64,000 bases of DNA from Acidobacteriota bacterium (lineage in GTDB: Bacteria; Acidobacteriota; Vicinamibacteria; Vicinamibacterales; UBA2999), in assembly GCA_020851325.1 (NCBI GenBank), contig JADZCY010000116.1, positions 1,780-65,779 of the forward strand. The letters run 5' to 3'. The notes under the pieces are model-generated. The model ran no database searches and was not told the origin of the DNA. It saw nothing but the letters and a program-made list of their open reading frames with translations. Each line of letters opens with the position of its first letter. Within the stretch, counting starts at the first letter, position 1. Positions 5,535-24,899 of the stretch are shown piece after piece. A program made the position numbers and the translations under genes.

Positions 5535-5560
5535 GTTCTTCACCAGGCAAGGACGGCAAC

Positions 5561-6967
5561 GTGTCTGACACTCTCCTGCGGATTTATCACCGGATGCCGA
5601 CCGCGGCGCAGATGGCGGCGGCCGGCGCCATGGGGCTGTATCTACGCAAGTGGCGCTTCGGCAAACAGACCGAGCGGCTGGTGGCCGACGCGCTGGCGCG
5701 CGACAAGTGGACGCCGGAACGCTGGCACGCCTATCAGCAGGAACGCCTGGCCCACATCCTCGAGCGAGCCGCCACGCGCGTGCCCTACTACCGCGACTAC
5801 TGGTCGCGCCGGCGCAGCCTCGGCGATCGCACGTCGTGGGATCAGCTCGAACACTGGCCGGTCCTCGAGAAGGACATCGTCCGCCGCATGCCGGAAGCCT
5901 TTGTCGCCGACGATATGGATACGCGGCGGATGTACTGCGAGCAGACCAGCGGCACCACGGGGACGCCGCTGCGTTTGTGGTGGAGCCGCGAGACGGTCCG
6001 CGAGTGGTACGCGTTGAACGAAGCGCGATCACGGCGGTGGTATGGCATCTCGCGACAGGATCGCTGGGCGATCGTCGGTGGCCGCGTCGTGGCACCGGTG
6101 ACGCAGCGGCAGCCGCCGTTCTGGATCTGGAACTTCGCGCTGAAACAGCTCTACATGTCGGCGTATCACCTGTCGCCGGAGCTGGCGCCAACCTACCTGG
6201 ACGCGCTGGTGCGTCACCGCATCACGTATCTCTTCGGCTACAGCTCCGGGCTGCACGCGCTGGCGGAGGCGGCGTTGCGACTGGGCCGCACCGATCTGCG
6301 ACTGGCCGTGGCCATCAGCAACGCCGAGCCGCTGCTGGACCATCAACGTCGCGCCATCGAGCGCGCGTTCCGCTGCCCGGTGCGCGAGACCTACGGCCTG
6401 GCCGAGATCGTCGGCGGCGGCAGTGAATGCGACCGCGGCCGGCTGCACCTGTGGCCCGAAGTCGGCATTGTCGAAGTGCTGGCGGGCACGCAGCCGGTGG
6501 CGCCCGGCGGCATCGGCGACCTGGTGTCCACCGGCCTCATCAACCCCGACATGCCGCTCATCCGCTACCGCACGGGCGACGCGATTCGCCTGTCGCCGGC
6601 GTCGTGCGCGTGCGGGCGTCAGATGCCGGTGGTGCAGGCGCTCGAAGGACGCTGCGACGACCTGGTGATCACCGCCGACGGCCGCCGCGTCGGCCGCCTC
6701 GACACGGTGTTCAAGGACAGCAATCTGGGCCTGCGCGAAGCGCAGATCGTGCAGGAGACGCACACCCGGTTCACCTTGCGATACGTGACGGCGGCGCCGG
6801 CGACCGCCGACCTCGAGGATCGACTCCGGCGGCGGATGCAGGAACACCTCGGCGCCGTCGACGTGACCTTCGAGCGCGTCGACCACATCCTGCGCTCCGC
6901 GCAAGGCAAGTTCCGCGCGGTGGTCAGCAAGGTGGCGCGCGACGAGCGGCAGGAAGCCGCGAGTTGA
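5561..6967 (+). CDS. CapK/PaaK-type adenylate-forming enzyme (phenylacetate-CoA ligase / F390 synthetase family)
   Basis: 468 aa. CEQTSGTTGTPLRLWW (AMP-binding P-loop-like SGTTG), ETYGLAEI and IRYRTGD blocks are characteristic of the PaaK/CapK family. Confidence 0.75.
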   Translation: MSDTLLRIYHRMPTAAQMAAAGAMGLYLRKWRFGKQTERLVADALARDKWTPERWHAYQQERLAHILERAATRVPYYRDYWSRRRSLGDRTSWDQLEHWPVLEKDIVRRMPEAFVADDMDTRRMYCEQTSGTTGTPLRLWWSRETVREWYALNEARSRRWYGISRQDRWAIVGGRVVAPVTQRQPPFWIWNFALKQLYMSAYHLSPELAPTYLDALVRHRITYLFGYSSGLHALAEAALRLGRTDLRLAVAISNAEPLLDHQRRAIERAFRCPVRETYGLAEIVGGGSECDRGRLHLWPEVGIVEVLAGTQPVAPGGIGDLVSTGLINPDMPLIRYRTGDAIRLSPASCACGRQMPVVQALEGRCDDLVITADGRRVGRLDTVFKDSNLGLREAQIVQETHTRFTLRYVTAAPATADLEDRLRRRMQEHLGAVDVTFERVDHILRSAQGKFRAVVSKVARDERQEAAS

Positions 6968-6978
6968 TCGAGGACACC

Positions 6979-7704
6979 ATGACGACCACGCCGGCGTTCG
7001 AGCGTGAGAGTGACCGCATCCGCGCCGCCTACGCGCGACGCGAGCTGACGGCCGACGAGCGCTACTCGTGGTTCAACGCCGCGCATCGTCTGGCGGTGCA
7101 GGAACGCGAGCGTGCCGTGCTGGACGTACTGCAACGACACGGCGTGCGCAGCTTGTCGCGTGTGCGCGTGGTCGAATTCGGCTGCGGCAGCGGCTTCTGG
7201 CTGCGCGAGTTCATCAAGTGGGGCTGCGCACCTTCACACGTCACCGGCGTCGACCTGCTGGCTGATCGCATTGCCGAAGCGCGGCGGTTGTGCCCGTCGG
7301 GCGTCGAGCTGATCTGCGCCAACGCACCGGATGCGCCACTCGTGCCCCACACCTACGACATCGTGCTGCAGTCGATGCTGCTGACTTCTGTGCTGGATCC
7401 GGCGCTGCGCGTCGCTGTGGCGCGGGCGATGCAGCGGGCGGTCGCACCGGGCGGATTGATCCTGTCCTACGACTACCACGTCAACAACCCGCGCAACGCC
7501 GACGTCAGGGCGCTGTCGAAGCGCGACCTGCGTGAGTTGTTCCCCGACTGTCGCGTCGACGTGCGCCGGCTGACGCTGGCGGCGCCGCTGGCGCGTCCGC
7601 TGGCGGCACATGCGCGGCCGCTGCATGCGCTGTGCGCGCGCATTCCGTGGTTGCGCAGCCACTACCTGGCGGCGATCACCGCACGGGAGGCCGACCGTGG
7701 CTGA
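6979..7704 (+). CDS. class I SAM-dependent methyltransferase
   Basis: Internal ATG 6979 of track ORF 6427..7704, 12 nt after the previous stop. Motif I VVEFGCGSGFWLREF. The upstream part of the track ORF is RG-rich junk overlapping the CapK gene. Confidence 0.8.
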   Translation: MTTTPAFERESDRIRAAYARRELTADERYSWFNAAHRLAVQERERAVLDVLQRHGVRSLSRVRVVEFGCGSGFWLREFIKWGCAPSHVTGVDLLADRIAEARRLCPSGVELICANAPDAPLVPHTYDIVLQSMLLTSVLDPALRVAVARAMQRAVAPGGLILSYDYHVNNPRNADVRALSKRDLRELFPDCRVDVRRLTLAAPLARPLAAHARPLHALCARIPWLRSHYLAAITAREADRG

Positions 7705-8773
7705 TCCGCGCCCCTTGCCCCGCGTCACCGTCGTGATGCCGATCCGCAACGAGGCGGGCTTCATCGCTCGCAGCCTCGGCGCCGTCCTCGCGCAGGATTA
7801 TCCGCGCCACCTGCTCGACGTCATCGTCGCCGACGGGTGCTCCGACGACGACACGCGGTCAATCGTCGAGACGATAGCGACACAGGATGGTCGCGTCACC
7901 ATCATCGACAACGAGGGCCGCATTGTCGCGTCGGGGCTGAACCGCGCGCTGGCCATGGCCACCGGTGAGGTCATCGTCCGCGTCGATGGCCACTGCGAGA
8001 TTGCCGCCGACTACGTGCGCTGCTGCGTCACGCACCTGCGCCGCGGTGGCGTGGCCGGCGTTGGCGGTCCGCTCGATACGGTGGGCACGACGCCGGTGGC
8101 TCGGGCCGTGGCCGCGGCCATGAGTTCCATGTTCGGCGTCGGCAACTCGGCCTTCCGGACGCTGAAGGGCACGACGCGGTTTGTCGACACCATCGCCTTT
8201 GGCGCCTACACCCGCGAGGCGCTCGCGTATGCCGGCCGCTTCGACACCGAACTGGTGCGCAATCAGGACGACGAATACAACTACCGCCTGCGGCGGCTCG
8301 GCTGCCGGCTGCTGCTGGCCTCCGATGTGCGGGCGCAGTACTTCAGTCGTGGATCACTGCAATCGCTGGCGCGTCAGTACTTCCAGTACGGCTACTGGAA
8401 AGTCCGGGTGTTGCAGAAGCATCCGCGGCAGATGAGCCTGCGACAGTTCGTGCCGCCGGCGTTCGTGATCGCCCTGCTGGCGCTGCCGTTCATACCGGGC
8501 GGGCTGCGCATCTGGGCGGCGCTGCTGGCGACCTACATCGCGGCCGTGATGGGCGCATCGATCGTCACGGCGCGCCGTCTGCGCGAACGCGAGGCGTGGA
8601 GCACGTTGCCCATTGCGTTCGTGATTCTGCACATCGCTTATGGCGCCGGCTTCCTCACCGGCCTGCTGAAGTTCGCATTGCGCTGGGGCCGGGATGCCGC
8701 GCCGACGCCGAATCCCGTGCCGGCATTCGAATCGACGCGCGGCATTGCCGCGGAGCGAGGCGGCCACTCGTGA
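7697..8773 (+). CDS. glycosyltransferase family 2 (membrane-associated)
   Basis: GTG 7697 overlaps the previous stop. VTVVMPIRNEAGFIARSLGAVLAQDY plus VIVADGCSDDDT (GT-A/DxD). Hydrophobic C-terminal helices. Confidence 0.85.
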   Translation: MADPRPLPRVTVVMPIRNEAGFIARSLGAVLAQDYPRHLLDVIVADGCSDDDTRSIVETIATQDGRVTIIDNEGRIVASGLNRALAMATGEVIVRVDGHCEIAADYVRCCVTHLRRGGVAGVGGPLDTVGTTPVARAVAAAMSSMFGVGNSAFRTLKGTTRFVDTIAFGAYTREALAYAGRFDTELVRNQDDEYNYRLRRLGCRLLLASDVRAQYFSRGSLQSLARQYFQYGYWKVRVLQKHPRQMSLRQFVPPAFVIALLALPFIPGGLRIWAALLATYIAAVMGASIVTARRLREREAWSTLPIAFVILHIAYGAGFLTGLLKFALRWGRDAAPTPNPVPAFESTRGIAAERGGHS

Positions 8774-9434: not shown

Positions 9435-10640
9435 GTGCGCACGAGTTTTCTCCCCTACCATCGCCCGTCGATCGGCCGTCACGAGATCGACGCCGTCGTT
9501 GAAACCCTGGAGTCCGGCTGGCTGACCACGGGGCCGCGGACGAAACAGTTCGAGGTGGACTTTGCCCAGGCGGTGGGCGCGCGGCACGCCATTGCGGTGA
9601 ACTCGTGTACCGCGGCGCTGCACCTGGCGCTGGACGCCGTCGGCGTGTCGTCCGGCGATGAGGTCATCGTGCCGACGATGACCTTTGCCGCCACGGCCGA
9701 AGTCGTCACCTACTTCGGTGCGACGCCGGTGCTGGTGGATTGCCAGCGCGATACCTGGAACATCGATCCAGCCGGCATCGAGCGCGCGATGACGCCGCGC
9801 ACGAAAGCCATCATCCCCGTGCACTACGCCGGTCAGCCGTGCGACATGGCCGAGATCATGGCGATCGGCCGGCGTGCCGGCGTCACCGTGATCGAGGACG
9901 CCGCACATGCCCTGCCGGCGTCGTATCGCGGCGAGCCGGTGGGACGCATCGGCGACATCACCTGCTTCTCGTTCTACGCCACCAAGACGCTGTCGACGGG
10001 CGAAGGCGGGATGATCACCACCGAAGACGACCGCGCCACCGAGCGGATGCGGATGATGGCGCTGCACGGCATCAGCAAGGACGCGTGGAAGCGCTACACG
10101 GCCGAAGGATCCTGGTACTACGAGATCCTGCACCCGGGGTTCAAGTACAACCTCACCGACGTCGCCGCGGCGCTCGGCGTGGAGCAACTCAAGCGGCAGG
10201 ACGAGTTCCTGGCCGCGCGCACGGCCATCGCGCGGCTCTACAGCGAGGGCCTGGCCGGCGTGCCCGGGCTCCGCTGCCCGGTGGCGAGGACCGATCGCGG
10301 CCACGCGTGGCACTTGTACGTCGTGGAGGTGGACGAGGCGGAGTTCGGCCTTGGGCGCAACGACTTCATCGAGACGTTGCGGGCCGCCAACATCGGGACG
10401 TCGGTGCACTTCATCCCGCTGCACCTGCATCCCTACTACCGCAATCGATTCGGCTACGCCGGCAGCGACTTCCCCGGCGCGTTCGACGCCTATCAGCGCA
10501 TTGTCTCGCTGCCCATCTACCCGGCGATGTCCGACGAGGACGTCGACGACGTGATCGACGCCGTGCAGGCGGTGTCGGCAAGCGCCCGCGCGCGATCGAC
10601 CGTGGCCGTGCCGGCGACGTCGATCGTCGCCGCCTCGTAG
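9435..10640 (+). CDS. DegT/DnrJ/EryC1/StrS family PLP-dependent sugar aminotransferase (PglE-like)
   Basis: 401 aa. NSCTAALHLAL, IEDAAHAL and FSFYATKTLSTGEGGMI (Lys of the PLP Schiff base) are typical family blocks. Confidence 0.9.
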   Translation: MRTSFLPYHRPSIGRHEIDAVVETLESGWLTTGPRTKQFEVDFAQAVGARHAIAVNSCTAALHLALDAVGVSSGDEVIVPTMTFAATAEVVTYFGATPVLVDCQRDTWNIDPAGIERAMTPRTKAIIPVHYAGQPCDMAEIMAIGRRAGVTVIEDAAHALPASYRGEPVGRIGDITCFSFYATKTLSTGEGGMITTEDDRATERMRMMALHGISKDAWKRYTAEGSWYYEILHPGFKYNLTDVAAALGVEQLKRQDEFLAARTAIARLYSEGLAGVPGLRCPVARTDRGHAWHLYVVEVDEAEFGLGRNDFIETLRAANIGTSVHFIPLHLHPYYRNRFGYAGSDFPGAFDAYQRIVSLPIYPAMSDEDVDDVIDAVQAVSASARARSTVAVPATSIVAAS

Positions 10641-10656: not shown

Positions 10657-11547
10657 ATGATGACGACCCTCACCGCCAAGCGCACGCTGAAGCACACGGC
10701 GGGGCTTGCCAGCGTGCTGCTGCACATGGCCACGCCGGCTGCCGCCGTGCGGCGCGCCTGCGTGCTGCTGTATCACCGCGTGTCGGCAGCGCCGGTCGTC
10801 GAGTCTCGCATCGACGACTGGAACGTCACGCCGGACACGCTGGAACGGCACATTGCCTGGCTGGCCGCGCACGCCGAACTCGTGTTCGCGCGCGATCTTC
10901 CGCGGCGCCTCGCGACGTCGTCGTCATCGACGCGTCCCATCGCCTGTCTCACCTTCGACGATGGGTTCCGGAACTTCCACGACGAGGTCGTGCCGCTGCT
11001 GCGGCGCTACGACGCCAGGGCGACGGTGTTCGTGGTCACCGGCTATGTCGGTCGCCACGCGCCCATGCCGTTCGACCGCTGGGGGCTCAAGCACAAGGAC
11101 GATGCGCCGGCGGCGGCATGGCGGTCGATGGACTGGGCCGAAGTGGAACGTTGTGCGGCGTCGGGTCTGGTCGAGGTGGGTGGACATTCCCACCATCACT
11201 ACGACGCTGCACGCACGCCGCCCGCGGCCCTCGCGGATGAGGCGGCGACGTGTCGCGACTGGCTGGTGAAGAAGCTGGGAGCCGATCATGCCGCGTCCTA
11301 CGCGTTTCCTTATGGGAACACCCGTCTCGGACAGGCCACGCCGGCGTATGTGGCCGCGGTGAAAGCGGCCGGCTACAGCGTCGCCTTCACCACCGATGTC
11401 GGGCTCGCGACGGCGGAGAGCAATCCGTTCACGCTGCCGCGGGTGGAAGTGTTTCGCACGGATTCGCCGGCAGTCATCCGCGCCAAGGTGGGCGGCGCGC
11501 TGGCGCCGTACCACGTGACGGGCCGGCTGCGCGGCATCGGCCGCTGA
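10657..11547 (+). CDS. polysaccharide deacetylase (NodB/CE4 family)
   Basis: LTFDDGFRNFHDEVVPLLRRYDARATVFV (NodB motif 1) and GGHSHHH metal-binding block. The start may be a downstream Met. Confidence 0.8.
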   Translation: MMTTLTAKRTLKHTAGLASVLLHMATPAAAVRRACVLLYHRVSAAPVVESRIDDWNVTPDTLERHIAWLAAHAELVFARDLPRRLATSSSSTRPIACLTFDDGFRNFHDEVVPLLRRYDARATVFVVTGYVGRHAPMPFDRWGLKHKDDAPAAAWRSMDWAEVERCAASGLVEVGGHSHHHYDAARTPPAALADEAATCRDWLVKKLGADHAASYAFPYGNTRLGQATPAYVAAVKAAGYSVAFTTDVGLATAESNPFTLPRVEVFRTDSPAVIRAKVGGALAPYHVTGRLRGIGR

Positions 11548-11559
11548 TTGGGATCACAG

Positions 11560-11862
11560 ATGACGACATTCCGCTCGCAACTGCAGGACGCGGTGTTCGG
11601 CGCCCTCGACGAAGTGAATCAGCACCGCGGTGCGTCGCAGCGGCTGGCGAAAGCGCCGGAGACGGTGCTGTCCGGTGAAGCGCACGCACTCGACTCGCTG
11701 GGCCTCGTCAACTTCGTCGTCGCGCTGGAACAGCGGCTGGACGGCGTGCTCCCCGAGCCGCTCAGCCTGCTCGATGACGAACGCGTGGACCTGTCGTCCG
11801 AACACTTCCGCACGGTCGGCGCCGTGATCGCGTATCTGGAACAGCTGCACCAACATGCGTAG
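11560..11862 (+). CDS. acyl carrier protein-like
   Basis: About 100 aa and acidic. HALDSLGLVNFVVALEQ contains the DSL phosphopantetheine-attachment motif at the usual helix-2 position. Its stop overlaps the start of the next gene. Confidence 0.7.
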   Translation: MTTFRSQLQDAVFGALDEVNQHRGASQRLAKAPETVLSGEAHALDSLGLVNFVVALEQRLDGVLPEPLSLLDDERVDLSSEHFRTVGAVIAYLEQLHQHA

Positions 11863-13519
11863 CACGCCGCTCCGCGCCGTGGTGATCGCGGACTTCACGG
11901 CCGCGAACCTGGCCGCGTGCCTGACGCACGACGAGGCGACGCCGCTGGTCGATGCCGTGGCGATATCGTACGCGTCGCTCGGTGCCGAGCTGCCGTCTGG
12001 TGATGTCGCCGTGGTGTGGACCCGGCCGGAGACGGTGAGCGCGGCATTTGCGAGTCACCTGCGTAGTGGAGACGGCGACACCACCGCGATGTTGCGCGAC
12101 GTGGATGGCTTCATCGAGCTGCTGTCGCGCCTGCGTCCGCGCTTCGCCCATCTGCTGGTCGTGAGCTGGCTGCCGCCGCGGCTGAGCGAGCTGTGGCCGT
12201 CACTGGCAATGCAGCACGACATCGGCATCAGCACGCTGGTGATGCGCATGAACCTCCGTCTGGCGGAAGGCCTGATGGCCGTGCCCGGCGCCGTGCTGCT
12301 GGATGCAGCGCGCTGGCGATCGGTGGACAGGACGGCCGAAGAAGCAAAGCTCTGGTACGCGGCCAAGGTGCCGTTCCATTCGGATGTCTTCCGTCGTGCA
12401 GCGCAGCAGGTGAAGGGCAGCGTGCGCGCGGCGCGTGGTGACTCGCGCAAGGTGATCGTCCTCGACCTCGACGACACCTTGTGGGGCGGTCTCGTCGGCG
12501 AAACCGGCCCGGCGGCACTGCGGCTTGGTGGGCACGACGCCACGGGCGAAGCCTTCGCCGACTTCCAGCGCGCCCTGCTCGCCCTGAAGGAACGCGGCGT
12601 GCTGCTGGCGATTGCCAGCAAGAACGACGAACGGGTGGCGCTCGACGCCATCGAGACACATCCCGAGATGGTGCTGCGCCGCAGTGACTTCGCCGCCTGG
12701 CGCATCGACTGGACCGACAAGGCCGCGAACATCCTGGCGTTGGCGCGCGAACTGAACCTCGGCCTGCAATCGATGGTGTTCATCGACGACAGCGCCATCG
12801 AACGGGCGCGCGTGCGCGAGGCGCTGCCGGACGTGCTGGTCCCCGACTGGCCATCGAGTCCTCTGCTCTACGTCGACGCACTGGTGTCGCTGGGGTGTTT
12901 CGACGCGGTGACGCTGACCGGCGAAGACCGTGCGCGGGCCACGCAGTACGCCGACGAACGCGTGCGCACGGCCGAACGCGAGGCCATGGGCGTCGACGAC
13001 TGGCTGCGGCGGCTCGACCTCCAGATCGATGTCGAGGAACTGCACGATCGCAACGCCCCCCGCGCCGTGCAGCTGCTCAACAAGACGAACCAGATGAACC
13101 TGCGGACGCGCCGGCTCGACCACGCGCAGTTCAACGCCTGGCTGGCGGGCGGACGACGAAAGGCGTGGACATTTCGCGTGCGCGATCGCTTCGGCGACGC
13201 CGGTCTCACCGGCCTCGCCTCGATCGAGATCGACGACGCCACCGCCCGGCTCACCGATTTCGTGTTGAGCTGCCGCGTCTTCGGCCGTCGTATCGAACTC
13301 GCCATGCTCCACACGGTGAGTGAGTGGGCGCGGCGCCAGGGCGCCCGCGAGCTGGTCGCCGACTACGAACCGACCGCGAAGAACGCGCCGACGTTGACGT
13401 TCCTCGAGAGCAGCGGTCTTCGTCAGACCGCGCCGGGGCAGTTCACCTGGAATCTCGACGACGCGTTCGCGGCGCCGGCAGATCTTGTCATCAACGAAGA
13501 GGCCGGCCTCCGCGCATGA
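11855..13519 (+). CDS. FkbH-like HAD-superfamily (subfamily IIIC) phosphatase/acyl-loading enzyme
   Basis: 554 aa. HAD motif I VIVLDLDDTLWGG, LAIASKND, VFIDDS; C-terminal FVLSCRVFGRRIE block with a conserved Cys, as in FkbH-type proteins. Confidence 0.8.
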   Translation: MRSTPLRAVVIADFTAANLAACLTHDEATPLVDAVAISYASLGAELPSGDVAVVWTRPETVSAAFASHLRSGDGDTTAMLRDVDGFIELLSRLRPRFAHLLVVSWLPPRLSELWPSLAMQHDIGISTLVMRMNLRLAEGLMAVPGAVLLDAARWRSVDRTAEEAKLWYAAKVPFHSDVFRRAAQQVKGSVRAARGDSRKVIVLDLDDTLWGGLVGETGPAALRLGGHDATGEAFADFQRALLALKERGVLLAIASKNDERVALDAIETHPEMVLRRSDFAAWRIDWTDKAANILALARELNLGLQSMVFIDDSAIERARVREALPDVLVPDWPSSPLLYVDALVSLGCFDAVTLTGEDRARATQYADERVRTAEREAMGVDDWLRRLDLQIDVEELHDRNAPRAVQLLNKTNQMNLRTRRLDHAQFNAWLAGGRRKAWTFRVRDRFGDAGLTGLASIEIDDATARLTDFVLSCRVFGRRIELAMLHTVSEWARRQGARELVADYEPTAKNAPTLTFLESSGLRQTAPGQFTWNLDDAFAAPADLVINEEAGLRA

Positions 13520-14019
13520 CGAGCCTGCCGTTCTTCACCTCGGGCCTGCAGTTCGATCACATCGGCATGGCCGTGCGGTCCATTCGTGACGCTGCTGGTG
13601 CAGCGGTCGAGATCATCGAGGACCCCGTGCAACGCGTCAGCGTCGCGTTCGTCGACATGGGCGGCGTGCGTGTGGAACTGGTCGAGCCGCTCGGCGCGCA
13701 ATCGCCGGTTTGCCAGAGCCTCGACAAGGGACAGACGCTCCTTCACGTCTGCTTCCGCGTCGCCGATCTCGAGCAGGCCATTGCCGCCGGGCGCCGGCAC
13801 GGCCTGCACCGGCTGACCGCCCCGGTCGCGGCGCCTGCCTTTGCCGGGCGACGAATCGTGTGGCTGTTCAACAAGCAGTTCGGGTTGATCGAACTCGTGG
13901 AGGATGCCGGCGAGCCGCAGCCGCAATCCGATGGTTCCGGTTACGCCGCGGTGCCCGATGCCCCCACCGCGCCAAAGGCGCGGTCCCATGTCCCTGACCG
14001 CCCGCAGGGCGGTAACTGA
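13516..14019 (+). CDS. VOC (glyoxalase/methylmalonyl-CoA epimerase-like) family protein
   Basis: ATGA overlap with the FkbH-like gene. FDHIGMAVRS ... VELVEPLG ... LHVCFRVADL pattern of paired beta-alpha-beta-beta-beta VOC modules. Confidence 0.7.
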   Translation: MTSLPFFTSGLQFDHIGMAVRSIRDAAGAAVEIIEDPVQRVSVAFVDMGGVRVELVEPLGAQSPVCQSLDKGQTLLHVCFRVADLEQAIAAGRRHGLHRLTAPVAAPAFAGRRIVWLFNKQFGLIELVEDAGEPQPQSDGSGYAAVPDAPTAPKARSHVPDRPQGGN

Positions 14020-15119
14020 TGCCGCTCACCATCGTTCCGTATTCGACCGGGCACGAGCCGGCCGTGCGTGCCTTCAACGCGCGCCTGTCGGACGGCGGCG
14101 TGTCGTATCAGTTCCCCACGAGTGCCACCAACGACGGCGTCGGGCGAGCGGTGGTGCATCGCGGCTTCGTGGCGGTGGACGAGGATGCGTCGGTGCGCGG
14201 CGGGTATCTCGTGCAGGAACAGCAGTTCTGGTTGAACGGTGCGATGCGCGCGGTGGGCTACCTGCACCTGCCGCTGTCGGAGGGCCTCGTCGATCCACGC
14301 TACGGCGCACTCGGCGTGAAACTCCTCACGCACGCCGCTCGACGCCAGCCGCTGCTGTTCGGCCTCGGCATCGGCGGTCGCAGTGAGACGTTCGCCCGCC
14401 TGGTGACGGCATTGGGGTGGACGCTGCACGACGTGCCGTTCCTGTTCAGGATCCTTCGACCGGCGCGCGTCGCTCAGGGGTTGTCGGCACTCCGTCGAAC
14501 GAAGGCGCGGCGCGTGGCGCTGACGCTGGCGGCCGGCACCGGCCTCGCCAGCCTGGGCACGCGCGTGCTGCAGACGCGCTGGCCGCGACGAAGCGATGGC
14601 GGTCACCGCTTCGATGCGGTTCACACGTTCGATGGACGTGCAGACGGAGTGTGGGCGCGCGGACGCGGGCCGCATCAGTTCGTGGCGTGCCGCGACGACG
14701 CGGCGCTGACCGAGTTGTATGCCGATGACGCCCGCAACTACCTGCGCTGGACGCTGGAGGTTGACGGACGCGCGGTCGGCTGGGCGGTGGCGCTCGACAC
14801 GCAGATGACCGACCACGCCTACTTCGGCAATCTCCGCCTCGCGACCATCGTCGATCTGTTTGGCGAAGCGGCGCATGCGCAGACACTGGTGGATGAAACC
14901 GTTCGCGCCATCGAACGCCGCGGTCCCGATCTGATCGTCACCAATCAGTCGTCGGGCGTCTGGGTCGCGGCACTGCGTCGGGCCGGCTTTCTTGCCGGTC
15001 CGTCGAACTATCTCTTCGCGGCGTCACCGGCACTCCGGCAGGCCTTGTCGGTGCCGGATGGCGATCTGCGGTTGTTCCACCTGACACGCGGCGACGGCGA
15101 CGGTCCGATTCACCTGTAG
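14019..15119 (+). CDS. GNAT/Fem-like acyltransferase-fold protein (function uncertain)
   Basis: TGATG overlap with the VOC gene. 366 aa with no strong motif visible to me. Its size and position resemble the about 360-aa GNAT-family proteins seen in EPS loci. Confidence 0.45.
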   Translation: MPLTIVPYSTGHEPAVRAFNARLSDGGVSYQFPTSATNDGVGRAVVHRGFVAVDEDASVRGGYLVQEQQFWLNGAMRAVGYLHLPLSEGLVDPRYGALGVKLLTHAARRQPLLFGLGIGGRSETFARLVTALGWTLHDVPFLFRILRPARVAQGLSALRRTKARRVALTLAAGTGLASLGTRVLQTRWPRRSDGGHRFDAVHTFDGRADGVWARGRGPHQFVACRDDAALTELYADDARNYLRWTLEVDGRAVGWAVALDTQMTDHAYFGNLRLATIVDLFGEAAHAQTLVDETVRAIERRGPDLIVTNQSSGVWVAALRRAGFLAGPSNYLFAASPALRQALSVPDGDLRLFHLTRGDGDGPIHL

Positions 15120-15150: not shown

Positions 15151-17121
15151 ATGGTTCCAGGACACCTGCTCGAAGACATGCGCGCCGGCCTGATTCGTCT
15201 GGCCGCCGTGGTGCGGACCTACGCCATGCCATGGCGTCGCATCATCGTCGTCTCGACGCACGTGGCAATTCCGATTGCCACCAGCTACGTCGCCTTCTGG
15301 TTGCGCTTCGACGGCGACATCCGCGACGTCGAGTGGGAGCTGTGGCTGCGGACGCTGCCGGCGCTGGTGACGATTCGGGTGATCAGTTTCATCCCGGCGC
15401 GGTTGTACGAAGGGCTGTGGCGCTACACCAGCATCTGGGATCTGCGGAACCTCGTCCTCGGTGTGGTCAGCGGCACGCTCGCCTTCTATGCCGTCATCAA
15501 TCTCTACTTCGGCCTCGTGCAGTACCCGCGGTCGGTGTACGTGCTCGACTCGCTGCTGCTGATTTTCGTGCTGGGCGGACTGCGCCTGCTGCCGCGCGTG
15601 TATCGCGAGATGGCCGGCCGCGGCCGCGGCAAGCGGCTCCTGATCTTCGGCGCCGGTGATGCCGGCGAAATGATCGTCCGCGACATGCTCAAGTACCCGA
15701 ACTACGCGCCGGTCGGGTTCCTCGACGACGACCCGCAGAAGGTCGGCCGGCGCATTCACGGCGTGCGCGTGCTCGGGACGCGGGCCGACCTGCCTCGCAC
15801 CATCGCGCGGTTCCAGCCGGATGAAGTGCTGGTCGCGGTGTCGCGTCGCGAGACGGCGCTGTTCCAGGACCTGGTGCGGGTGCTGCAGCCCTACAAGGTG
15901 CCGATCACCACGGTGCCGGCGCTGCGCCACCTGATCGACGGACAACTGGCGGTCAGCCAGATCCGCGAGGTGTCGATCGAGGACCTGTTGACCCGCGTGC
16001 CGGTCGGCCTCGACGAAACGCGCGTGCGCCGATTGTTCGAAGGCGAATGCGTGATGGTGACCGGCGCTGGCGGCTCGATTGGCTCCGAGTTGTGCCGGCA
16101 GATTGCCGTGTTCCAGCCGCGCTGCCTGATCCTGTTCGAGCGCTACGAGAACAGCCTCTACGCCATCGCCCACGAACTCGCCGATCGCTACCCCGACGTG
16201 ACGTGCGAGTTGATCGTCGGCGACGTCGGCGACGTGCGGCGCCTGGATCAGGTGCTCGGCAGCCTGCGCCCGTCGGTCATCCTGCACGCCGCCGCGCACA
16301 AGCACGTGCCGCTGATGGAGTTCAACTGCTGCGAGGCGGTGAAGAACAACGTCCTCGGCACGCTGCGGCTCGGCCAGGCGGCGCAGCGGCACGGCGTGGC
16401 GCAGTTCGTCATGGTGTCGAGCGACAAGGCGGTGAATCCGTCGAGCGTGATGGGCGCCACCAAGCGCGTCGCCGAACTGGCGCTGCAGTCGCTGGCGCCG
16501 CACGGCCGGACGCGCTTTGCCACCGTCAGGTTCGGCAACGTCCTCGGCAGCAACGGCAGCGTCGTGCCGCGCTTCCTGCAGCAGATCCGCGCCGGCGGCC
16601 CGGTCACCGTAACGCATCCCGACATCCGCCGCTACTTCATGCTCATTGCCGAGGCCGTGCACCTCGTGCTGCACGCGACGGCCATCGGGGACGAGAACGA
16701 CGTCTACGTCCTCGACATGGGCGAGCAGATCCGGCTGGTGGATCTGGCGCAGAACCTGATTCGTCTCGCCGGCTTCATCCCCGATCAGGAGATCCGCATC
16801 GAGATCGTCGGCCTGCGGCCCGGCGAGAAGCTGTACGAGGAGCTCACCTCCGCGGACGAGGAACTGGAACCCTCGTCGGTGGAAAAGGTGAACAAGGTGA
16901 GCCGGCGGGCACCGGTCCCGCGCGACTTCGACACACAGGTGCGCGAACTGATCCGGTTCGCGCGCCGGGCCGATGCCGCCGCCGTCATCGATCAACTCGG
17001 CGTCGTCGTGCCGTCGTTCGAACCGGATCCCGGACTGCGGCGGCGTGTGGCCGCCGAGCCCATCTTCCGGCGCGTTCCGGTACGACCGGCGCCGGCGGCG
17101 CGCCTGGCCACCGCGGGCTGA
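15151..17121 (+). CDS. polysaccharide biosynthesis protein CapD/PglF/WbpM type (membrane UDP-HexNAc 4,6-dehydratase)
   Basis: 656 aa. Four N-terminal TM helices; LIFGAGDAGE and VMVTGAGGSIGSEL Rossmann motifs; SSDKAVNPSSVMGATKRVAE catalytic block. Confidence 0.9.
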   Translation: MVPGHLLEDMRAGLIRLAAVVRTYAMPWRRIIVVSTHVAIPIATSYVAFWLRFDGDIRDVEWELWLRTLPALVTIRVISFIPARLYEGLWRYTSIWDLRNLVLGVVSGTLAFYAVINLYFGLVQYPRSVYVLDSLLLIFVLGGLRLLPRVYREMAGRGRGKRLLIFGAGDAGEMIVRDMLKYPNYAPVGFLDDDPQKVGRRIHGVRVLGTRADLPRTIARFQPDEVLVAVSRRETALFQDLVRVLQPYKVPITTVPALRHLIDGQLAVSQIREVSIEDLLTRVPVGLDETRVRRLFEGECVMVTGAGGSIGSELCRQIAVFQPRCLILFERYENSLYAIAHELADRYPDVTCELIVGDVGDVRRLDQVLGSLRPSVILHAAAHKHVPLMEFNCCEAVKNNVLGTLRLGQAAQRHGVAQFVMVSSDKAVNPSSVMGATKRVAELALQSLAPHGRTRFATVRFGNVLGSNGSVVPRFLQQIRAGGPVTVTHPDIRRYFMLIAEAVHLVLHATAIGDENDVYVLDMGEQIRLVDLAQNLIRLAGFIPDQEIRIEIVGLRPGEKLYEELTSADEELEPSSVEKVNKVSRRAPVPRDFDTQVRELIRFARRADAAAVIDQLGVVVPSFEPDPGLRRRVAAEPIFRRVPVRPAPAARLATAG

Positions 17122-17179: not shown

Positions 17180-18682
17180 ATGGCCGACACCGTCAACAGG
17201 CATGGAGAAGACCGATCGCGACAGCGCACGCGAGCGGGAGGACGCAAGGGCGGCGCGGCAGCCGCCTGGTTGATTGGCGCCGCCGTGCTGGCGGCGGCGG
17301 GATGGGTGGCGCTGCGGGGTGGCGGGTCCGCTACGGCCCCGGCGGCCGCCGCCGTCGAGGCGGTGCGATCGCCGACCGGCTGCACGACCGGGCGCACGGT
17401 CTACGCCTCGTCGAATGGAACCGCCGAAGCCGCCGGCACCGCGGCGCAGCCGCTCGATCTGGCGACGGCGCTGTCGAGTCACGGCCCGGCTCGTGGCTGC
17501 GACACCATCCTGCTGCGCGGCGGCACGTATCGCGGCGCCTTCACCAGCACGGTGCAGGGCAGCGACGGCGCCCCGGTGCTGATCCGCCAGGCCCCCGGCG
17601 AACGCGTCACGCTCGACGGCGACGGCTCGAACGAAGCGGTGCTCCAGGTGCGCGGCAACTGGGTGTGGGTGATGGACATCGAGGTCACCAACTCGCATCC
17701 GTCGCGCGAGAGCGCGCAATCCGGCGGCTGGCCGAGCGATCTGCGGCGCGGCACCGGCGTCTTCGCCGGCGGCTCGCACCTCAAGTTCATCAACCTCGTC
17801 GTCCACGACGTCACGCGCGGCTTCGAGATCGGCTCGTCGTCGATCGACACTGAAGTCTACGGGTCAATCGTCTACTACAACGGCTGGACGGGTCCCAACG
17901 GCGCGTCGAACGGGCACGGCATCGACACGCACAACCGCGCCGGCACGCGACGCATCGCCGACAACATCCTGTTCGCGCAGTACAGCCACGGCATCATCGC
18001 CTACTCGTCGGATCAGGACCCGACCAACAACCTGGTGCTCGAGGGCAACGTGCTGTTCAACAACGGCGCGCTCAGCGCCGACCGTTCGGGACGCGACATC
18101 CTGATCGGCGGCGGTTCGGTAGCCCAGCAGCCGGTCCTGCGCGACAACGTCACCTACGGTGCCGCGCCGGTGCTGCTCGGCTTCGGCGCCGGCTGCACGG
18201 GCGGCATCATCGAGGGCAACTACTTCGCCAACGCGTCGATCGACCTGGCGAAGTGCGAGGCCACGGTCACGCGCAACGTCATCGCGCGGCCGGCGCCGGC
18301 GCTGGCCACGGCGCAACCCGCCAACACCTTCCTCACCGAGGGGCCAACCGGCGTGGAAGTGCGCGTGCGTCCAAACCAGTACGAGCCGGGACGCGCCAAC
18401 ATCGTCGTCCTGAACTGGGACAAGCGCGAGGCGGTGGACGTCGATCTCACCAACATCGGCCTCACCACGAGCACGCCGTTCGAGATTCGTGACGCGCAGG
18501 ACTTCTTCGGCGCGCCGCTCGTCACCGGCCAGCGCGGCCCCGGCACCGTGTCGGTGCCCATGACGATGAAGATGACGAGCGTGCCGGTGGGTTACAAGGG
18601 CACGCTGGCGCACACGACGCCCGAATTCTCGACCCTGGTTGTGGTGCCGCTCGCGGCCGGCACCCCGTCATCGACACGGTAA
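17180..18682 (+). CDS. secreted/anchored right-handed parallel beta-helix protein, paralog A
   Basis: Internal ATG 17180 of track ORF 16973..18682. N-terminal anchor AAAWLIGAAVLAAAGWVAL. Blocks GTYRGAF, FINLVVHDV, YYNGW and RDILIGG are shared with 18691..20124 and 27730..31167. Confidence 0.7.
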   Translation: MADTVNRHGEDRSRQRTRAGGRKGGAAAAWLIGAAVLAAAGWVALRGGGSATAPAAAAVEAVRSPTGCTTGRTVYASSNGTAEAAGTAAQPLDLATALSSHGPARGCDTILLRGGTYRGAFTSTVQGSDGAPVLIRQAPGERVTLDGDGSNEAVLQVRGNWVWVMDIEVTNSHPSRESAQSGGWPSDLRRGTGVFAGGSHLKFINLVVHDVTRGFEIGSSSIDTEVYGSIVYYNGWTGPNGASNGHGIDTHNRAGTRRIADNILFAQYSHGIIAYSSDQDPTNNLVLEGNVLFNNGALSADRSGRDILIGGGSVAQQPVLRDNVTYGAAPVLLGFGAGCTGGIIEGNYFANASIDLAKCEATVTRNVIARPAPALATAQPANTFLTEGPTGVEVRVRPNQYEPGRANIVVLNWDKREAVDVDLTNIGLTTSTPFEIRDAQDFFGAPLVTGQRGPGTVSVPMTMKMTSVPVGYKGTLAHTTPEFSTLVVVPLAAGTPSSTR

Positions 18683-18690: not shown

Positions 18691-20124
18691 GTGTCCGGAT
18701 TCGTCGTTCGCGTCGTCCTCGTGGCGCTCCTGTTGCTGTTCGCGCTCGTGCAGCCGTCCACCGTGAACCTGCCGGCCCGCTCCACACCGCGCGGGCCGTC
18801 GGACACGGACCTGTACGTGTCACCGGATGGTCACGCGGACGCACCAGGCACGCGCGACGCGCCGCTGACGCTCGCCGCGGCACTGGCGGGCGACGGACCG
18901 GCGCAGCCCGGCAACACGGTGTGGCTGCGCGAGGGCACCTATCGCGGCGCGTTCGTCAGCGCGGTGCGCGGGCTGCCCGACGCGCCGATCGTGTTCCGGC
19001 AGTATCCCGGCGAGCGCGCCATCATCGACAGCCGGCCGTTTCCGGATGCCGCCCTCACGGTCACCGGCGCCTGGACGACGTTCTGGGGGTTCGAGATCAC
19101 CAACTCCGATCCGGAGCGGCAGGCCAGGGAGTCCGGCCCCTGGCCGGCGGACCTGCGGCGCGGCAGCGGGATTTTCGCGCGCGGCCCGCACAACGCCTTC
19201 ATCAACCTCGTCGTGCACGACCTCGCCAACGGCTTCGGTGTGTGGGAGGAGTCGCAGGATTCGGTCGTCTACGGCAACCTCGTCTACTACAACGGCTGGG
19301 AAGGCCCGGAACGCGCGCACGGCCACGGCATCTACACGCAGAACCGTCTCGGCCAGCGCCTCGTCGCCGACAACATCGTCTTCCGTCAGTTCAGCCACGG
19401 CATTCATGCCTTCGGATCGTCGGCCGCCCATCTCGACAACATCACGCTGCGCGGCAACGCCGTGTTCGACAACGGCGGCATCGCGAAGAGCGGCTCCGAA
19501 CGCGACATTCTGCTCGGCGGCGATCGCATCGCCGCCAACCCTGTCCTCGAAGCCAACGCCACGTTCGGTCCGGCGCAGAGCGCAATGGGCTGGGATGCCG
19601 GCTGCACGAACGGCCGCGTCTTCGGCAACACGTTCGTCGGCACCACGCCGCTCATCCTGGTGCGCTGCGACCCGTCGATGACCGGCAACACCTTCGTCGG
19701 TTTCACCGGCGACGTCTCCGCACGTTACGCCGGTGGCGCCGGCGATCTGTCGCGGCTGCACCCGGACAACACGTTCTTTGCGACCGCGCCGGCCGACGGC
19801 GTGCACACGCAACTGCGTGTCAATGACTACGACCCGTCGCGCGCACACCTGATTGTCTACAACTGGGGCGCGCGTGCCTCCGTCGACGTCGACGTGCGCG
19901 AGTTCGCCCGCGCCGGCGATCGCATCGACGTCATCGATGCGCAGAACTACTTTGGCCGTCCCGTCGCCAGCGTGGTGCACCGCGACGGCCAGCCGCTGAC
20001 GGTGCCGATGACGTCAACGGTCGTGGCCACACCGATTGGCGCCGTGCCCACGCCACCGCGTCACACCGGACCGCGGTTCGGCGTGTTCGTCCTGCGCGCC
20101 ACGCCGCCGGCACCCCGTCCATGA
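18691..20124 (+). CDS. secreted right-handed parallel beta-helix protein, paralog B
   Basis: Signal-like VVRVVLVALLLLFALVQPS. TVWLREGTYRGAF, FINLVVHDLANGFGV, YGNLVYYNGWEG, HGHGIYTQN and ERDILLGG align with paralogs A and C. Confidence 0.7.
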   Translation: MSGFVVRVVLVALLLLFALVQPSTVNLPARSTPRGPSDTDLYVSPDGHADAPGTRDAPLTLAAALAGDGPAQPGNTVWLREGTYRGAFVSAVRGLPDAPIVFRQYPGERAIIDSRPFPDAALTVTGAWTTFWGFEITNSDPERQARESGPWPADLRRGSGIFARGPHNAFINLVVHDLANGFGVWEESQDSVVYGNLVYYNGWEGPERAHGHGIYTQNRLGQRLVADNIVFRQFSHGIHAFGSSAAHLDNITLRGNAVFDNGGIAKSGSERDILLGGDRIAANPVLEANATFGPAQSAMGWDAGCTNGRVFGNTFVGTTPLILVRCDPSMTGNTFVGFTGDVSARYAGGAGDLSRLHPDNTFFATAPADGVHTQLRVNDYDPSRAHLIVYNWGARASVDVDVREFARAGDRIDVIDAQNYFGRPVASVVHRDGQPLTVPMTSTVVATPIGAVPTPPRHTGPRFGVFVLRATPPAPRP

Positions 20125-21004: not shown

Positions 21005-22333
21005 ATGTCCGAACTCGCCATCCACGCCGAGTGTCTCGGCAAGTCGTATCGCCTGGGCGCGCGTCAGGAGCGCTACCAGAGCCTGCGTGATGCCCTCGCC
21101 CGCGGCGCGCGGGCCACCGTCGCGCGGCTGCGGCCCGGCCGTCGGGCCGCGCGGCCTGCCGCCGAAACGATGTGGGCGCTCGAGGACGTGACGTTCTCGA
21201 TCCGTCAGGGCGAGGTGGTCGGCATCATCGGCCGGAACGGCGCCGGCAAGAGCACGCTCCTGAAACTGCTGTCGCGCATCACCGAACCGTCGCGGGGCAC
21301 GGTGGACATCTGGGGTCGAGTCGGATCGCTACTCGAGGTCGGCACCGGTTTCCATCCGGAACTGACCGGTCGCGAGAACATCTACCTGAGCGGCGCCATC
21401 CTCGGCATGAAGCGCGCGCGCATCATCGAGAAGTTCGACGAGATGGTGGCCTTCGCCGAAGTCGAGCGCTTCGTCGACACGCCGGTGAAGCACTACTCGT
21501 CCGGCATGTATCTGCGCCTGGCGTTTGCCGTTGCCGCGCATCTCGACCCGGAGATCCTGCTGGTCGACGAGGTGCTGGCCGTGGGCGACGCGCGCTTCCA
21601 GCGCAAGTGCCTCGACAAGATGCAGGAGGTCGGCGCGCAGGGCCGCACCGTGCTCTTCGTCTCGCACAGCATGCCGACGATCACACGGCTCTGCCCGCGA
21701 GCCATCCTGCTCGGCGAGGGTCGGGTGCTGCACGACGGTCCGGCGCCCTCGGTGGTCGCGCAGTACCTGCAGTCCGGACTCGGTACAGCCTCCGCGCGTG
21801 AGTGGACGGATCCGCAGCGCGCGCCGGCGAGCGACACGGTGCGCCTGCGCGCAGTACGGCTGCGCACGAGCCGCGGCATCGTGCCCGACACCGTCGACAT
21901 CCGCGAAACCGTTGGCGTCGAGATGGAGTACGACGTGCTGCGCCCCGGCGTGGTGCTCTTTCCGCACTTCAGCGCGCACACGGCCGAAGGCGCCTTTGCG
22001 TTCGTCGGGCTCGATCAGGATCCCGAGTGGCGTTCACGGCCGCGGCCGGTCGGGCGGTACATCAGCACCGGCTGGATCCCCGGCAACCTGCTCTCCGAGG
22101 GGATCATGCTGATTGGCGCGGCGATGCGTTCGCTCGCGCCCGATCAGCTGCACTTCTGGGAACGCGACGCCGTCTCGTTCCACGTCGTCGATGTGCCCAA
22201 CGCCGACACGGCGCGTGGCGACTATCCAGGCGGTATCCCCGGCGTCGTCCGCCCGCTGCTCCGCTGGACGACGGAGTTTCATCCGCCGGCGGCGCGGGTG
22301 ACCGATCCGGAAGCGGTGGTGGTGTCGTCATGA
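21005..22333 (+). CDS. wzt: polysaccharide ABC exporter ATP-binding protein with C-terminal glycan-binding-type extension
   Basis: Internal ATG 21005 of track ORF 20318..22333. Walker A GRNGAGKST, signature YSSGMYLRLAF, Walker B ILLVDE, plus an about 190-aa C-terminal beta-rich domain. Confidence 0.9.
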   Translation: MSELAIHAECLGKSYRLGARQERYQSLRDALARGARATVARLRPGRRAARPAAETMWALEDVTFSIRQGEVVGIIGRNGAGKSTLLKLLSRITEPSRGTVDIWGRVGSLLEVGTGFHPELTGRENIYLSGAILGMKRARIIEKFDEMVAFAEVERFVDTPVKHYSSGMYLRLAFAVAAHLDPEILLVDEVLAVGDARFQRKCLDKMQEVGAQGRTVLFVSHSMPTITRLCPRAILLGEGRVLHDGPAPSVVAQYLQSGLGTASAREWTDPQRAPASDTVRLRAVRLRTSRGIVPDTVDIRETVGVEMEYDVLRPGVVLFPHFSAHTAEGAFAFVGLDQDPEWRSRPRPVGRYISTGWIPGNLLSEGIMLIGAAMRSLAPDQLHFWERDAVSFHVVDVPNADTARGDYPGGIPGVVRPLLRWTTEFHPPAARVTDPEAVVVSS

Positions 22334-23115
22334 CGTCTCGTTCATCTGCGCATCTGCGGCTGCGGCATTCGTGGCCATCTGCGCATCTGCGGCATGTGTG
22401 GATGGCGGCGTGGATGAAAGGCGCCGGCCACGGCCCGCTGGGCCGGCTGTCGATGCGCCTGGCGGCGTGGGCGGCGCCGCCCCACCGCGGACGCAACCTG
22501 CTGGCACGACTCAGCCCCGCCGGCTTTGTCGCCGCGTCGGCGCTCGAGCATCACCCGGACCTGACGTACGGCCGTCACGGTTTCATCGGCGAGCGTGTCG
22601 TGTTGTATTCACGCGACGGCAGCGGTCGCATTGTCCTCGGCAACGGCGCACACGTCTATCAGGACAGCGTGCTCGAGACCGGACACGGCGGTGAGATCCA
22701 CATCGGCGCGCACACGAGCATTCATACGCGGTGTCAGTTGATGGCGTATGTCGGATCGATCCGCATCGGCAGCGGCGTCGCCGTGGCCGCCAACTGCGCG
22801 TTGTATCCCTACGACCACGGTACGGTTCTCGGCGAGCCCATCGCACGCCAGCCGCTCGTCAGCCGGGGCGACATCGTCATCGATGACGATGCGTGGCTGG
22901 GGACGGGCGTGATTGTGCTCGCCGGCGTGCGCGTCGGCACTGGTGCGGTGGTGGCCGCCGGTGCGGTTGTGACCCGCGATGTCCCACCGAACGCGATTGC
23001 CGCCGGCGTGCCGGCACGCGTGGTCGGCTGGCGTCAGCCGCCGCCGCGCGATCGGGCCGAGCCGGTCGAACACCTCGAAGCCATTGCCGCCGCGGGCGGT
23101 CGCGACCTGCCATGA
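22330..23115 (+). CDS. left-handed beta-helix (hexapeptide-repeat) acetyl/acyltransferase
   Basis: ATGA overlap with wzt. Hexapeptide runs [34 protein letters not shown] and [33 protein letters not shown]. The true start may lie further downstream. Confidence 0.8.
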
Positions 23116-24895: not shown

Positions 24896-24899
24896 TCCC

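Follow-up and report, generated by a model that had tools for sequence, protein, structure and literature searches.

A predicted carrier-protein-dependent N-acylation cassette in a surface-glycan gene cluster of an acidobacterium

In the biosynthesis of Nod factor (NodB/NodF/NodA) and of lipid A (LpxC/ACP/LpxD), a de-N-acetylase acts first and the sugar is then re-acylated from an acyl-acyl carrier protein (acyl-ACP), all in the cytoplasm; NodB is a member of the CE4 family. An equivalent trick with a transient group, in this case formyl, is used by ArnA and ArnD in the 4-amino-4-deoxyarabinose (Ara4N) pathway. Here we describe a candidate system of this kind from an Acidobacteriota bacterium (GenBank assembly GCA_020851325.1, contig JADZCY010000116.1, positions 1,780 to 65,779 of the forward strand); the whole stretch of 64,000 nucleotides is termed the window, and all positions refer to it unless another locus is named. 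Five genes at 10657-15119, located in an ABC-transporter-type polysaccharide operon, encode a CE4 deacetylase, a predicted acyl carrier protein (ACP), an FkbH-family loader, a VOC metalloenzyme and a putative acyltransferase, termed Y. On balance, we favour the reading that this five-gene cassette swaps the N-acetyl group of a sugar for a glycerate-derived acyl group.

In polyketide pathways, FkbH-family enzymes make glyceryl-S-ACP from 1,3-bisphosphoglycerate (PMC7489565). Similar to FkbH/OzmB of these systems, the FkbH protein of the window combines HAD-IIIC and Cys domains, possesses an N-terminal extension as in the tetronate-type enzymes, retains the invariant DxDxT, S, K, DD and LSCR elements, and is encoded adjacent to a dedicated small ACP. 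However, the window has no FabH-like condensing enzyme, no FkbG/I/K-type oxidation and methylation genes and no polyketide synthase (PKS). Instead, its ACP is predicted to be read by an N-myristoyltransferase (NMT)-like transferase in a polysaccharide operon, and a VOC gene is inserted between FkbH and this transferase. The cassette follows the logic of NodB/NodA and LpxC/LpxD in that the CE4 gene and the ACP are encoded together with Y. In contrast, Y shares no homology with NodA or with the LbH enzyme LpxD. The predicted acyl group is a C3 hydroxy acid that FkbH loads, in place of a fatty acid supplied by fatty acid synthase, with a repeat-unit sugar as the target.

Sugars bearing such acyl groups have been described. 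The glyceroyl group of Neisseria glyceramido-acetamido-trideoxyhexose (GATDH) was attributed to an ATP-grasp domain fused to the phosphoglycosyl transferase (PGT) PglB2 (PMC11130364). The product predicted here belongs to the same class, an N-glyceroyl bacillosamine-type sugar made by a PglF/PglE-like route with a PglC-type start, whereas Neisseria lacks the ACP, FkbH, VOC, CE4 and Y. A 2,3-di-O-methylglyceroyl-Pse was found in C. jejuni (PMC3068675), the glycosylation locus of which holds the uncharacterised FkbH-domain gene cj1302 (PMC7099621). As in the window, an FkbH-domain gene is therefore present in the glycan locus of a strain whose sugar bears a glycerate-derived N-acyl group; no function is assigned to cj1302 in the literature that we reached. 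The genetic basis of the N-glyceroyl group in Tannerella forsythia Pse5Am7Gra was called 'a major challenge' in 2017 (PMC5378307). In V. cholerae O1, perosamine is acylated with tetronate, with a role for wbeL (PMC3441752). Because N-glyceroyl amino sugars are known from Neisseria, Tannerella and C. jejuni, the novelty of the window should lie in the enzymology. The acyl substituent is probably not new, contrary to what an initial annotation made from the window sequence had suggested, whereas the uncharacterised route that it also put forward is likely. In the literature collection searched, FkbH and polysaccharide are mentioned together in only three papers, without a characterisation of such a route in any of them, and searches linking FkbH to capsule, flagellin or O-antigen, or 3-hydroxybutanoyl to ACP, returned nothing relevant.

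The transferase Y and its neighbourhoods

Y matches nothing in Pfam or NCBIfam even at E <= 10, including the GNAT, NMT and FemAB models, and nothing among PDB sequences. The AlphaFold (AF2) model of Y, built with 46 homologues, has a predicted local distance difference test score (pLDDT) of 93.3 and a predicted template modelling score (pTM) of 0.91. A Foldseek search of the PDB with this model returned NMTs as all of the top 50 matches (E = 5e-12 to 6e-10, template modelling score (TM) 0.48-0.58, about 360-390 columns), with the best full-length matches at E = 5e-12 and TM 0.5-0.58. This confident model indicates that Y is a tandem GNAT, with two GNAT-like alpha/beta halves in one chain, and that it is closest to NMT. 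The GNAT/Fem-like character first ascribed to the 366-aa protein is thus borne out by its fold, whereas the protein is no ordinary GNAT and represents an unannotated NMT-like tandem-GNAT family that escapes the hidden Markov models (HMMs). Y differs from NMT in its bacterial origin, in an identity of only about 10% with no match by sequence models, in its probable donor (an ACP, not acyl-CoA) and in its probable acceptor (a sugar amine, not an N-terminal Gly).

The invariant residues of Y concentrate in the C-terminal motif H-x-(T/N)-R-G-D-G-D-G-P-I-H-L, and 41 of the 46 homologues stop exactly at ...RGDGDGP(I/V)(H/N)L. NMT catalysis relies on the C-terminal carboxylate as the base. By analogy, the invariant extreme C-terminus of Y is suggestive, and its free carboxylate may act as an NMT-like catalytic base.

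Y defines a widespread family without annotation. It has 224 matches in the 90% database, all labelled 'hypothetical', and 717 representatives or clusters at E<=1e-30 in the full HMM scan. In a scan of one genome per species, Y was found in 226 species-representative genomes from many phyla. The 80 Y loci kept come from Acidobacteriota, Planctomycetota, Zixibacteria, Ignavibacteria and Gemmatimonadota, further from Myxococcota, Verrucomicrobiota, Chloroflexota and Nitrospirota, and include cultured Luteimonas, Novilysobacter and Geothrix.

Three multidomain fusions contain Y, each time as the final domain. The fusion P0370 (1311 aa) consists of an AMP-binding (adenylation) domain with an inserted FkbM methyltransferase, a PP-binding domain and Y, and P0331 (980 aa) has the same domain order; in P0261 (739 aa), a FemAB/Acetyltransf_6-like domain precedes Y. 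The fusion of a carrier domain directly ahead of Y speaks strongly for a phosphopantetheinyl carrier as the source of its donor. We propose that Y is a carrier-protein-dependent N-acyltransferase.

The co-occurrence of Y with other genes was analysed in 83 non-redundant Y loci, in which all open reading frames (ORFs) were translated and searched with the window proteins as well as with neighbours of Y from other loci. In 64 of these loci, Y has an ACP at a distance of 4 kb or less, and 57 have a loader equally close: 36 have FkbH and 26 an adenylating ligase, with 5 loci having both. In the cultured Luteimonas sp. MJ246/MJ250 and Novilysobacter antarcticus (L032, L055 and L067), the unit consists of ACP, FkbH, X309 (a CE4-like protein described below) and Y. 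The unit of ACP, loader and Y recurs within glycan loci of many phyla, in agreement with the module outlined in the initial annotation. The clades of the Y tree track the loader type and the locus architecture. The window groups with two acidobacterial loci, L004 and L006, which are syntenic with it from CapK through PglF.

The fold of Y bears on a rather different explanation, in which the module does not serve a polysaccharide and instead acylates the N-terminus of a protein or peptide, as NMT and FemX do, or supplies a lipid or PKS pathway whose genes lie beyond the window. The closest folds to Y are protein N-acyltransferases, one of the fusions joins Y to a FemAB-like domain, and only 64 kb of the genome is visible. 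However, Y sits in glycan loci of many phyla beside PGTs, DegT, CE4 enzymes, glycosyltransferases and Wzm/Wzt. In addition, neither a PKS nor a nonribosomal peptide synthetase (NRPS) turned up among those long ORFs of the window that were tested or among the called genes of the syntenic loci, and use of the ACP by such an enzyme was therefore rejected. We regard a role outside glycan synthesis as very improbable.

The loader, the carrier protein and the VOC enzyme

The assignment of the 554-aa protein to FkbH, as well as its catalytic Asp and Cys, was confirmed. Its TIGR01686 match exceeds the cutoff (Table 1) and spans model positions 3-320 of 323, the HAD-IIIC model gives 69 bits, and PDB entry 3slr matches at E = 2e-38 across the HAD region. 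The protein is composed of an N-terminal domain, a HAD-IIIC domain and a Cys-bearing C-terminal domain. The open papers found describe the FkbH/OzmB pathway and not the motifs, and gave no catalytic residue numbering; therefore, reference FkbHs for the alignment were drawn from Streptomyces and Rhodococcus plasmids. The tblastn search against plasmids yielded two Streptomyces tetronate-type operons, with the canonical set of FabH-like protein, FkbH, ACP, E2-like acyltransferase and alpha/beta hydrolase, and, from Rhodococcus, a type I PKS in which an FkbH domain is embedded. The residues of HAD motifs I-IV, namely D204, D206 and T208 (DLDDT), S255, K289, D311 and D312, are invariant compared to the tetronate-operon and PKS-embedded FkbHs. 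Cys473 in the LSCR motif, which from the OzmB work we take to be the acyl-enzyme site, is invariant in 7 of 7 aligned sequences. A plasmid match from S. meliloti carries no annotation, and a match on a Methylosinus plasmid was discarded as an ordinary tetronate/PKS cluster.

Judged by its sequence, the 100-aa protein encoded upstream of FkbH is a divergent acyl carrier protein with a conserved Ser. This residue, Ser46 of the DSL motif, corresponds to the phosphopantetheine site and is invariant across 9 sequences, including annotated ACPs from the tetronate operons.

The VOC assignment also proved correct, as the Glyoxalase_4 match is above its cutoff and the metal ligands are kept. Among PDB entries, the VOC protein is closest to C. 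acetobutylicum glyoxalase I (73 bits), followed by human methylmalonyl-CoA epimerase (40 bits). The H/E/H/E metal ligands align with those of the C. acetobutylicum enzyme and are retained in 8 of 8 orthologues. Orthology to methylmalonyl-CoA epimerase was ruled out, with 48.1 bits for the TIGR03081 equivalog against a cutoff of 114.95, and only the chemistry is borrowed. By analogy, we propose that VOC acts on glyceryl-S-ACP via an enediolate. The simplest outcome would be C2 epimerisation, which is favoured because methylmalonyl-CoA epimerase and glyoxalase I both handle alpha-substituted thioesters. A VOC gene is present in 8 of the 83 Y loci, all of which also contain FkbH. As 28 of the 36 FkbH-type loci have no VOC gene, the family must be able to use unmodified glyceryl-ACP as a donor.

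The same enzyme could lead to another acyl group if VOC, or other enzymes of the operon, converted glyceryl-ACP before the transfer. On chemical grounds, an enediolate beside the 3-hydroxyl could eliminate water, and such a beta-elimination would yield pyruvoyl-ACP. Alternatively, O-methylation by the methyltransferases at 6994 or 26828 would produce a methylglyceroyl group as in C. jejuni, in which the di-O-methylated sugar and cj1302 occur in one locus. TylF-type O-methyltransferases adjoin Y in L005 and L038, and one is encoded at 26828 in the window. However, no dehydrogenase or reductase is coupled to the ACP/FkbH/VOC/Y genes, and the many FkbH-type loci devoid of VOC also argue against a required conversion. 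Transfer of a group other than glyceroyl thus appears improbable.

CE4-fold partners and the proposed acyl exchange

The CE4 deacetylase of the window has invariant TFDDG and HSxxH motifs, and its gene is located directly upstream of the ACP gene in the window as well as in L004 and L006. In many other loci, the partner of Y is a protein of 309-321 aa, here termed X309 (for example L001:9054-9995, L003:9064-9990 and L024:9072-9998, with 37 other loci). X309 is encoded directly upstream of Y, within 2 kb, in 35 of the 83 loci, and within 4 kb in 40; the window has no X309, and the canonical CE4 gene stands immediately upstream of the ACP instead. The 4,469 homologues of X309 at E<=1e-10 are all 'hypothetical' and have no Pfam assignment. 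The invariant motifs F-D-D-T-D, H-x4-H, M-P-Y and Y-T-H resemble CE4 motifs 1, 2, 3 and 5. The AlphaFold model of X309 (pLDDT 87.7) matches the putative polysaccharide deacetylase 3rxz (3e-7) and Salmonella ArnD 8t0j (5e-6), as well as PdaC, PgdA, chitin deacetylases and Bordetella WbmS. A profile search of the PDB with X309 gave only a chitin deacetylase, at E = 0.25. X309 is predicted to adopt a CE4/NodB fold, mainly on the basis of its motifs, weak DUF2334 and Polysacc_deac_1 matches, and the modelled structure.

Either X309 or a canonical CE4 enzyme is encoded near Y in 50 of the 83 loci, in 27 of the 36 FkbH loci and in 16 of the 22 ligase-only loci. As a CE4-fold partner accompanies Y this often, we include the deacetylase at 10657 in the cassette. 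The four genes of the initial annotation are real, while the functional unit extends beyond them; what recurs is a set of de-N-acylase, carrier protein, loader and Y.

The bacillosamine (Pgl) pathway set of the window comprises a PglF-type dehydratase, a PglE-type aminotransferase and a PglC-type PGT, and no convincing PglD-type LbH N-acetyltransferase was found in the window. The only LbH protein, encoded at 22330, had been noted as a possible PglD; this caveat is weakened, since the protein scores only 46 bits against the NeuD/PglB/VioB cutoff of 160.8 and better, at about 58 bits, with the WcaF/WbbJ/Vat O-acetyltransferases. Y itself could therefore replace PglD, which is the main reading of the initial annotation, and acylate UDP-4-amino-4,6-dideoxy-HexNAc, the product of the PglF-like enzyme and DegT, at its 4-amino group. 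The product would be a GATDH-like 4-N-glyceroyl sugar, and the CE4 enzyme would be unrelated, for example by providing a free amine elsewhere in the polymer. Such a role fits the gene order of the window, in which DegT and a PglC-like PGT precede Y and PglF follows it, as well as the location of DegT two genes upstream of Y in planctomycete loci and the existence of the sugar in Neisseria. However, only 22 of the 83 loci have DegT at 10 kb or less from Y, and 19 of these 22 also have a CE4-fold gene, whereas a CE4-fold gene without DegT is present in 31 loci, which makes the CE4-fold partner the more general companion of Y. In addition, the deacetylase of the window ends 13 bases before the ACP start. 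Replacement of PglD by Y is thus rather unlikely in our view, and the presence of a CE4-fold partner in 50 of the 83 loci makes an exchange of acetyl for another acyl group the likelier event.

For this exchange we propose the following steps. FkbH would take 1,3-bisphosphoglycerate, and its HAD domain would remove the 3-phosphate. The glyceryl group would be held on Cys473 and then passed to the Ser46-phosphopantetheine of the adjacent carrier. VOC may act on the resulting alpha-hydroxy thioester via a metal-stabilised enediolate, most simply by C2 inversion from D- to L-glyceryl-ACP. The CE4 deacetylase would expose an amine on a UDP- or undecaprenyl-PP-linked sugar of the 2,4-diamino-2,4,6-trideoxyhexose type, made by the PglF-like enzyme and DegT; alternatively, the DegT product itself would supply the amine. 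A transient acetyl group may also be put on the DegT product first, in analogy to the formyl group handled by ArnA and ArnD. Y, located in the cytoplasm, would finally move the acyl group from the carrier protein onto the exposed amine. The sugar is probably of the 2,4-diamino-2,4,6-trideoxyhexose type because PglF-like, DegT and PglC-like genes are present together with no convincing PglD. Acylation of a sugar from the ACP in place of acetylation, the central idea of the initial annotation, is supported by the FkbH score, the retained Asp, Cys and Ser residues, the lack of a PKS/NRPS among the genes tested and the recurring neighbourhoods. Everything beyond gene, family and fold assignment we infer from neighbourhoods, including the substrate of FkbH, the role of VOC, the point in the pathway at which the sugar is acylated and the choice between N-2 and N-4 as the acceptor.

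Several points weigh against the acetyl-to-glyceroyl exchange. The host is an uncultured bacterium from a metagenome, and the cassette is predicted from gene sequences and models. The invariant Ser46 upholds the carrier-protein call, whereas the protein falls below the Pfam threshold (PP-binding 14.9 bits against 20.8, E = 0.031) and the NCBIfam ACP cutoffs (17-19 bits against 70-80, E about 1e-3). The link of X309 to CE4 in sequence is weak: of 18 members, 7 match DUF2334 (best E = 0.004), the E-value for Polysacc_deac_1 is 0.13, and a comparison of X309 with the window CE4 family by hhalign was not significant (E = 0.22), though the FDD and His motifs were paired. The C-terminal carboxylate of Y is a candidate base located at a poorly modelled end, the last six residues having a mean pLDDT of only 63. 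The role of VOC comes from chemical reasoning alone. DegT and the CE4 enzyme provide two competing candidate acceptor amines. Finally, 16 of the 83 Y loci, among them those of three cultured Geothrix species, have no ACP within 10 kb; for some Y proteins, the donor may therefore be acyl-CoA or come from genes at another site. The Geothrix loci are exceptions to the cassette rule. In Geothrix fuzhouensis, G. alkalitolerans and G. paludis (L075, L086 and L089), Y is present, and no carrier, loader, CE4-fold gene or DegT was detected within 10 kb.

Planctomycete loci provide a parallel with an adenylating ligase as the loader. In L024:6353-17070, from a Planctomycetota metagenome-assembled genome (MAG), the order is GNAT, DegT, X309, Y, ACP, AMP-ligase, LuxE, LuxC and GDP-mannose 4,6-dehydratase, and L025, L030 and L040 have a similar gene order. 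These X309-Y loci share the set of carrier, ligase, LuxE/LuxC, aminotransferase and GDP-mannose dehydratase with V. cholerae O1, in which rfbK presumably encodes the ACP, wbeL/rfbL the ligase and rfbN a LuxC/LuxE-like protein. The window differs from V. cholerae O1 in using FkbH, not a ligase. The likeness supports an amino sugar as the acceptor, and the N-substituent made by loci of the L024 type may be a reduced or hydroxy-acyl group, carried by a perosamine-type sugar. Another Planctomycetota MAG locus (L068, about 1000-8000) contains one Y surrounded by two carriers and both loader types, with DegT, X309, VOC, FkbH and ACP upstream of Y, and an ACP and an AMP-ligase downstream.

Gene cluster and implications

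The genes of the cassette and the neighbours discussed above are listed in Table 1. The G+C content is about 69% across the window; it drops to 0.594 at 62001-64000, compared to 0.66-0.71 in the remaining window. The four ORFs from ACP to Y are on the plus strand and overlap, as the initial annotation had described, and the junctions are evident in the sequence. The stop codon TGA of the deacetylase occupies 11545-11547, ahead of the ATG of the ACP at 11560. The TAG of the ACP (11860-11862) and the ATG of FkbH (11855) give an 8-nt overlap, a shared ATGA (13516-13519) joins FkbH and VOC, and base 14019 is common to the TGA of VOC and the ATG of Y. Y stops at 15117-15119, followed by the ATG of PglF at 15151. 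The flanking small PGT, DegT, CE4 deacetylase, PglF-like dehydratase and CapK-like enzyme were likewise recovered by Pfam and NCBIfam matches.

Table 1. Positions and supporting matches of the cassette genes and selected neighbours
Feature	Position	Strand	Evidence
Small PglC-like PGT, 214 aa	8770..9414	+	Bac_transf 165.5 bits
DegT/PglE-type sugar aminotransferase	9435..10640	+	DegT_DnrJ_EryC1 458.7 bits; best NCBIfam matches ArnB and PseC
CE4 (NodB-homology) polysaccharide deacetylase	10657..11547	+	Polysacc_deac_1 76 bits, cutoff 23
Predicted divergent ACP, 100 aa	11560..11862	+	Ser46 in DSL motif; weak HMM matches
FkbH-family glyceryl transferase/phosphatase, 554 aa	11855..13519	+	TIGR01686 289.9 bits, cutoff 146.65
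VOC metalloenzyme, 167 aa, low-complexity tail	13516..14019	+	Glyoxalase_4 53.5 bits, cutoff 27
Y, NMT-like tandem-GNAT, putative acyltransferase, 366 aa	14019..15119	+	AF2 model and Foldseek
PglF/CapD-type membrane-anchored UDP-HexNAc 4,6-dehydratase	15151..17121	+	Polysacc_synt_2 364.5 bits; CoA_binding_3 domain
LbH acetyltransferase	22330..23115	+	WcaF, WbbJ and Vat about 56-59 bits; NeuD/PglB/VioB 46 bits, cutoff 160.8

Surface-glycan genes form a long plus-strand run from about 3100 to 27733. The 5' part contains, in order, two GT4 glycosyltransferases, the CapK-like adenylating enzyme (5561), a methyltransferase and a GT2 enzyme. The middle part consists of the PglC-like PGT, DegT, the CE4 deacetylase, the ACP, FkbH, VOC and Y genes, and the PglF-like dehydratase. 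It is followed by two beta-helix-like proteins, Wzm and Wzt (20121 and 21011), the LbH acetyltransferase and a second GT2 enzyme, and the run ends with a glucose-1-phosphate cytidylyltransferase, a DRL-like oxidoreductase and a TylF-like O-methyltransferase.

Some of these genes deserve mention. The CapK-like enzyme and the adjoining methyltransferase (5561-7704, plus strand) weakly match the NCBIfam families 'DVU_1553 family AMP-dependent CoA ligase' and 'DVU_1556 family methyltransferase', which hints at a conserved pair of unknown role. Between PglF and Wzm, two adjacent plus-strand paralogues of about 480-500 aa (17180-18682 and 18691-20124) have no Pfam match at 1e-5, and the genes at the corresponding position in L006 match a Pel9A-like beta-helix; the pair may be glycan-modifying or lyase-like proteins inside a biosynthetic operon. 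The 3' end of the cluster (24122-27733, plus strand) is a CDP-hexose branch, with the glucose-1-phosphate cytidylyltransferase at 441 bits against a cutoff of 300. Alternatively, the glyceroyl group could be the target of the TylF-like O-methyltransferase of this branch. A 1201-aa protein with CHB_HEX_C, Fn3_assoc, Big_7 and fn3 domains is encoded on the minus strand at 27730-31335, convergent with the end of the glycan cluster.

What is new in the window is the combination of a known loader and the known logic of deacetylation and re-acylation with a transferase family and a CE4-like family that are both without annotation. Extending this to the whole family, we tentatively suggest, as a possibility that we hold at somewhat less than even chances, that Y and its CE4-fold partner (X309 or a canonical CE4 enzyme) constitute a general bacterial 'acyl-swap' machine, with the C-terminal carboxylate of Y as the base and the acyl group set by the loader. 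FkbH would then give glyceroyl groups, a ligase with FabG 3-hydroxyacyl groups, and a ligase with LuxE/LuxC tetronate-like groups. If true, this machine would be the missing genetic basis of many non-acetyl N-acyl decorations of glycans and a bacterial counterpart of the eukaryotic NMT fold.

Non-acetyl N-acyl groups such as glyceroyl, 3-hydroxybutanoyl and tetronoyl shape serotype, phage receptors and immune recognition. To our knowledge, the genes that install them on bacterial sugars are mostly unknown. The locus described here is a concrete gene set, from which we predict that the neighbouring loader gene reveals the identity of the acyl group. If confirmed, the N-acyl chemistry of glycan gene clusters would become annotatable, and the cassette would be usable to re-decorate glycoconjugates.

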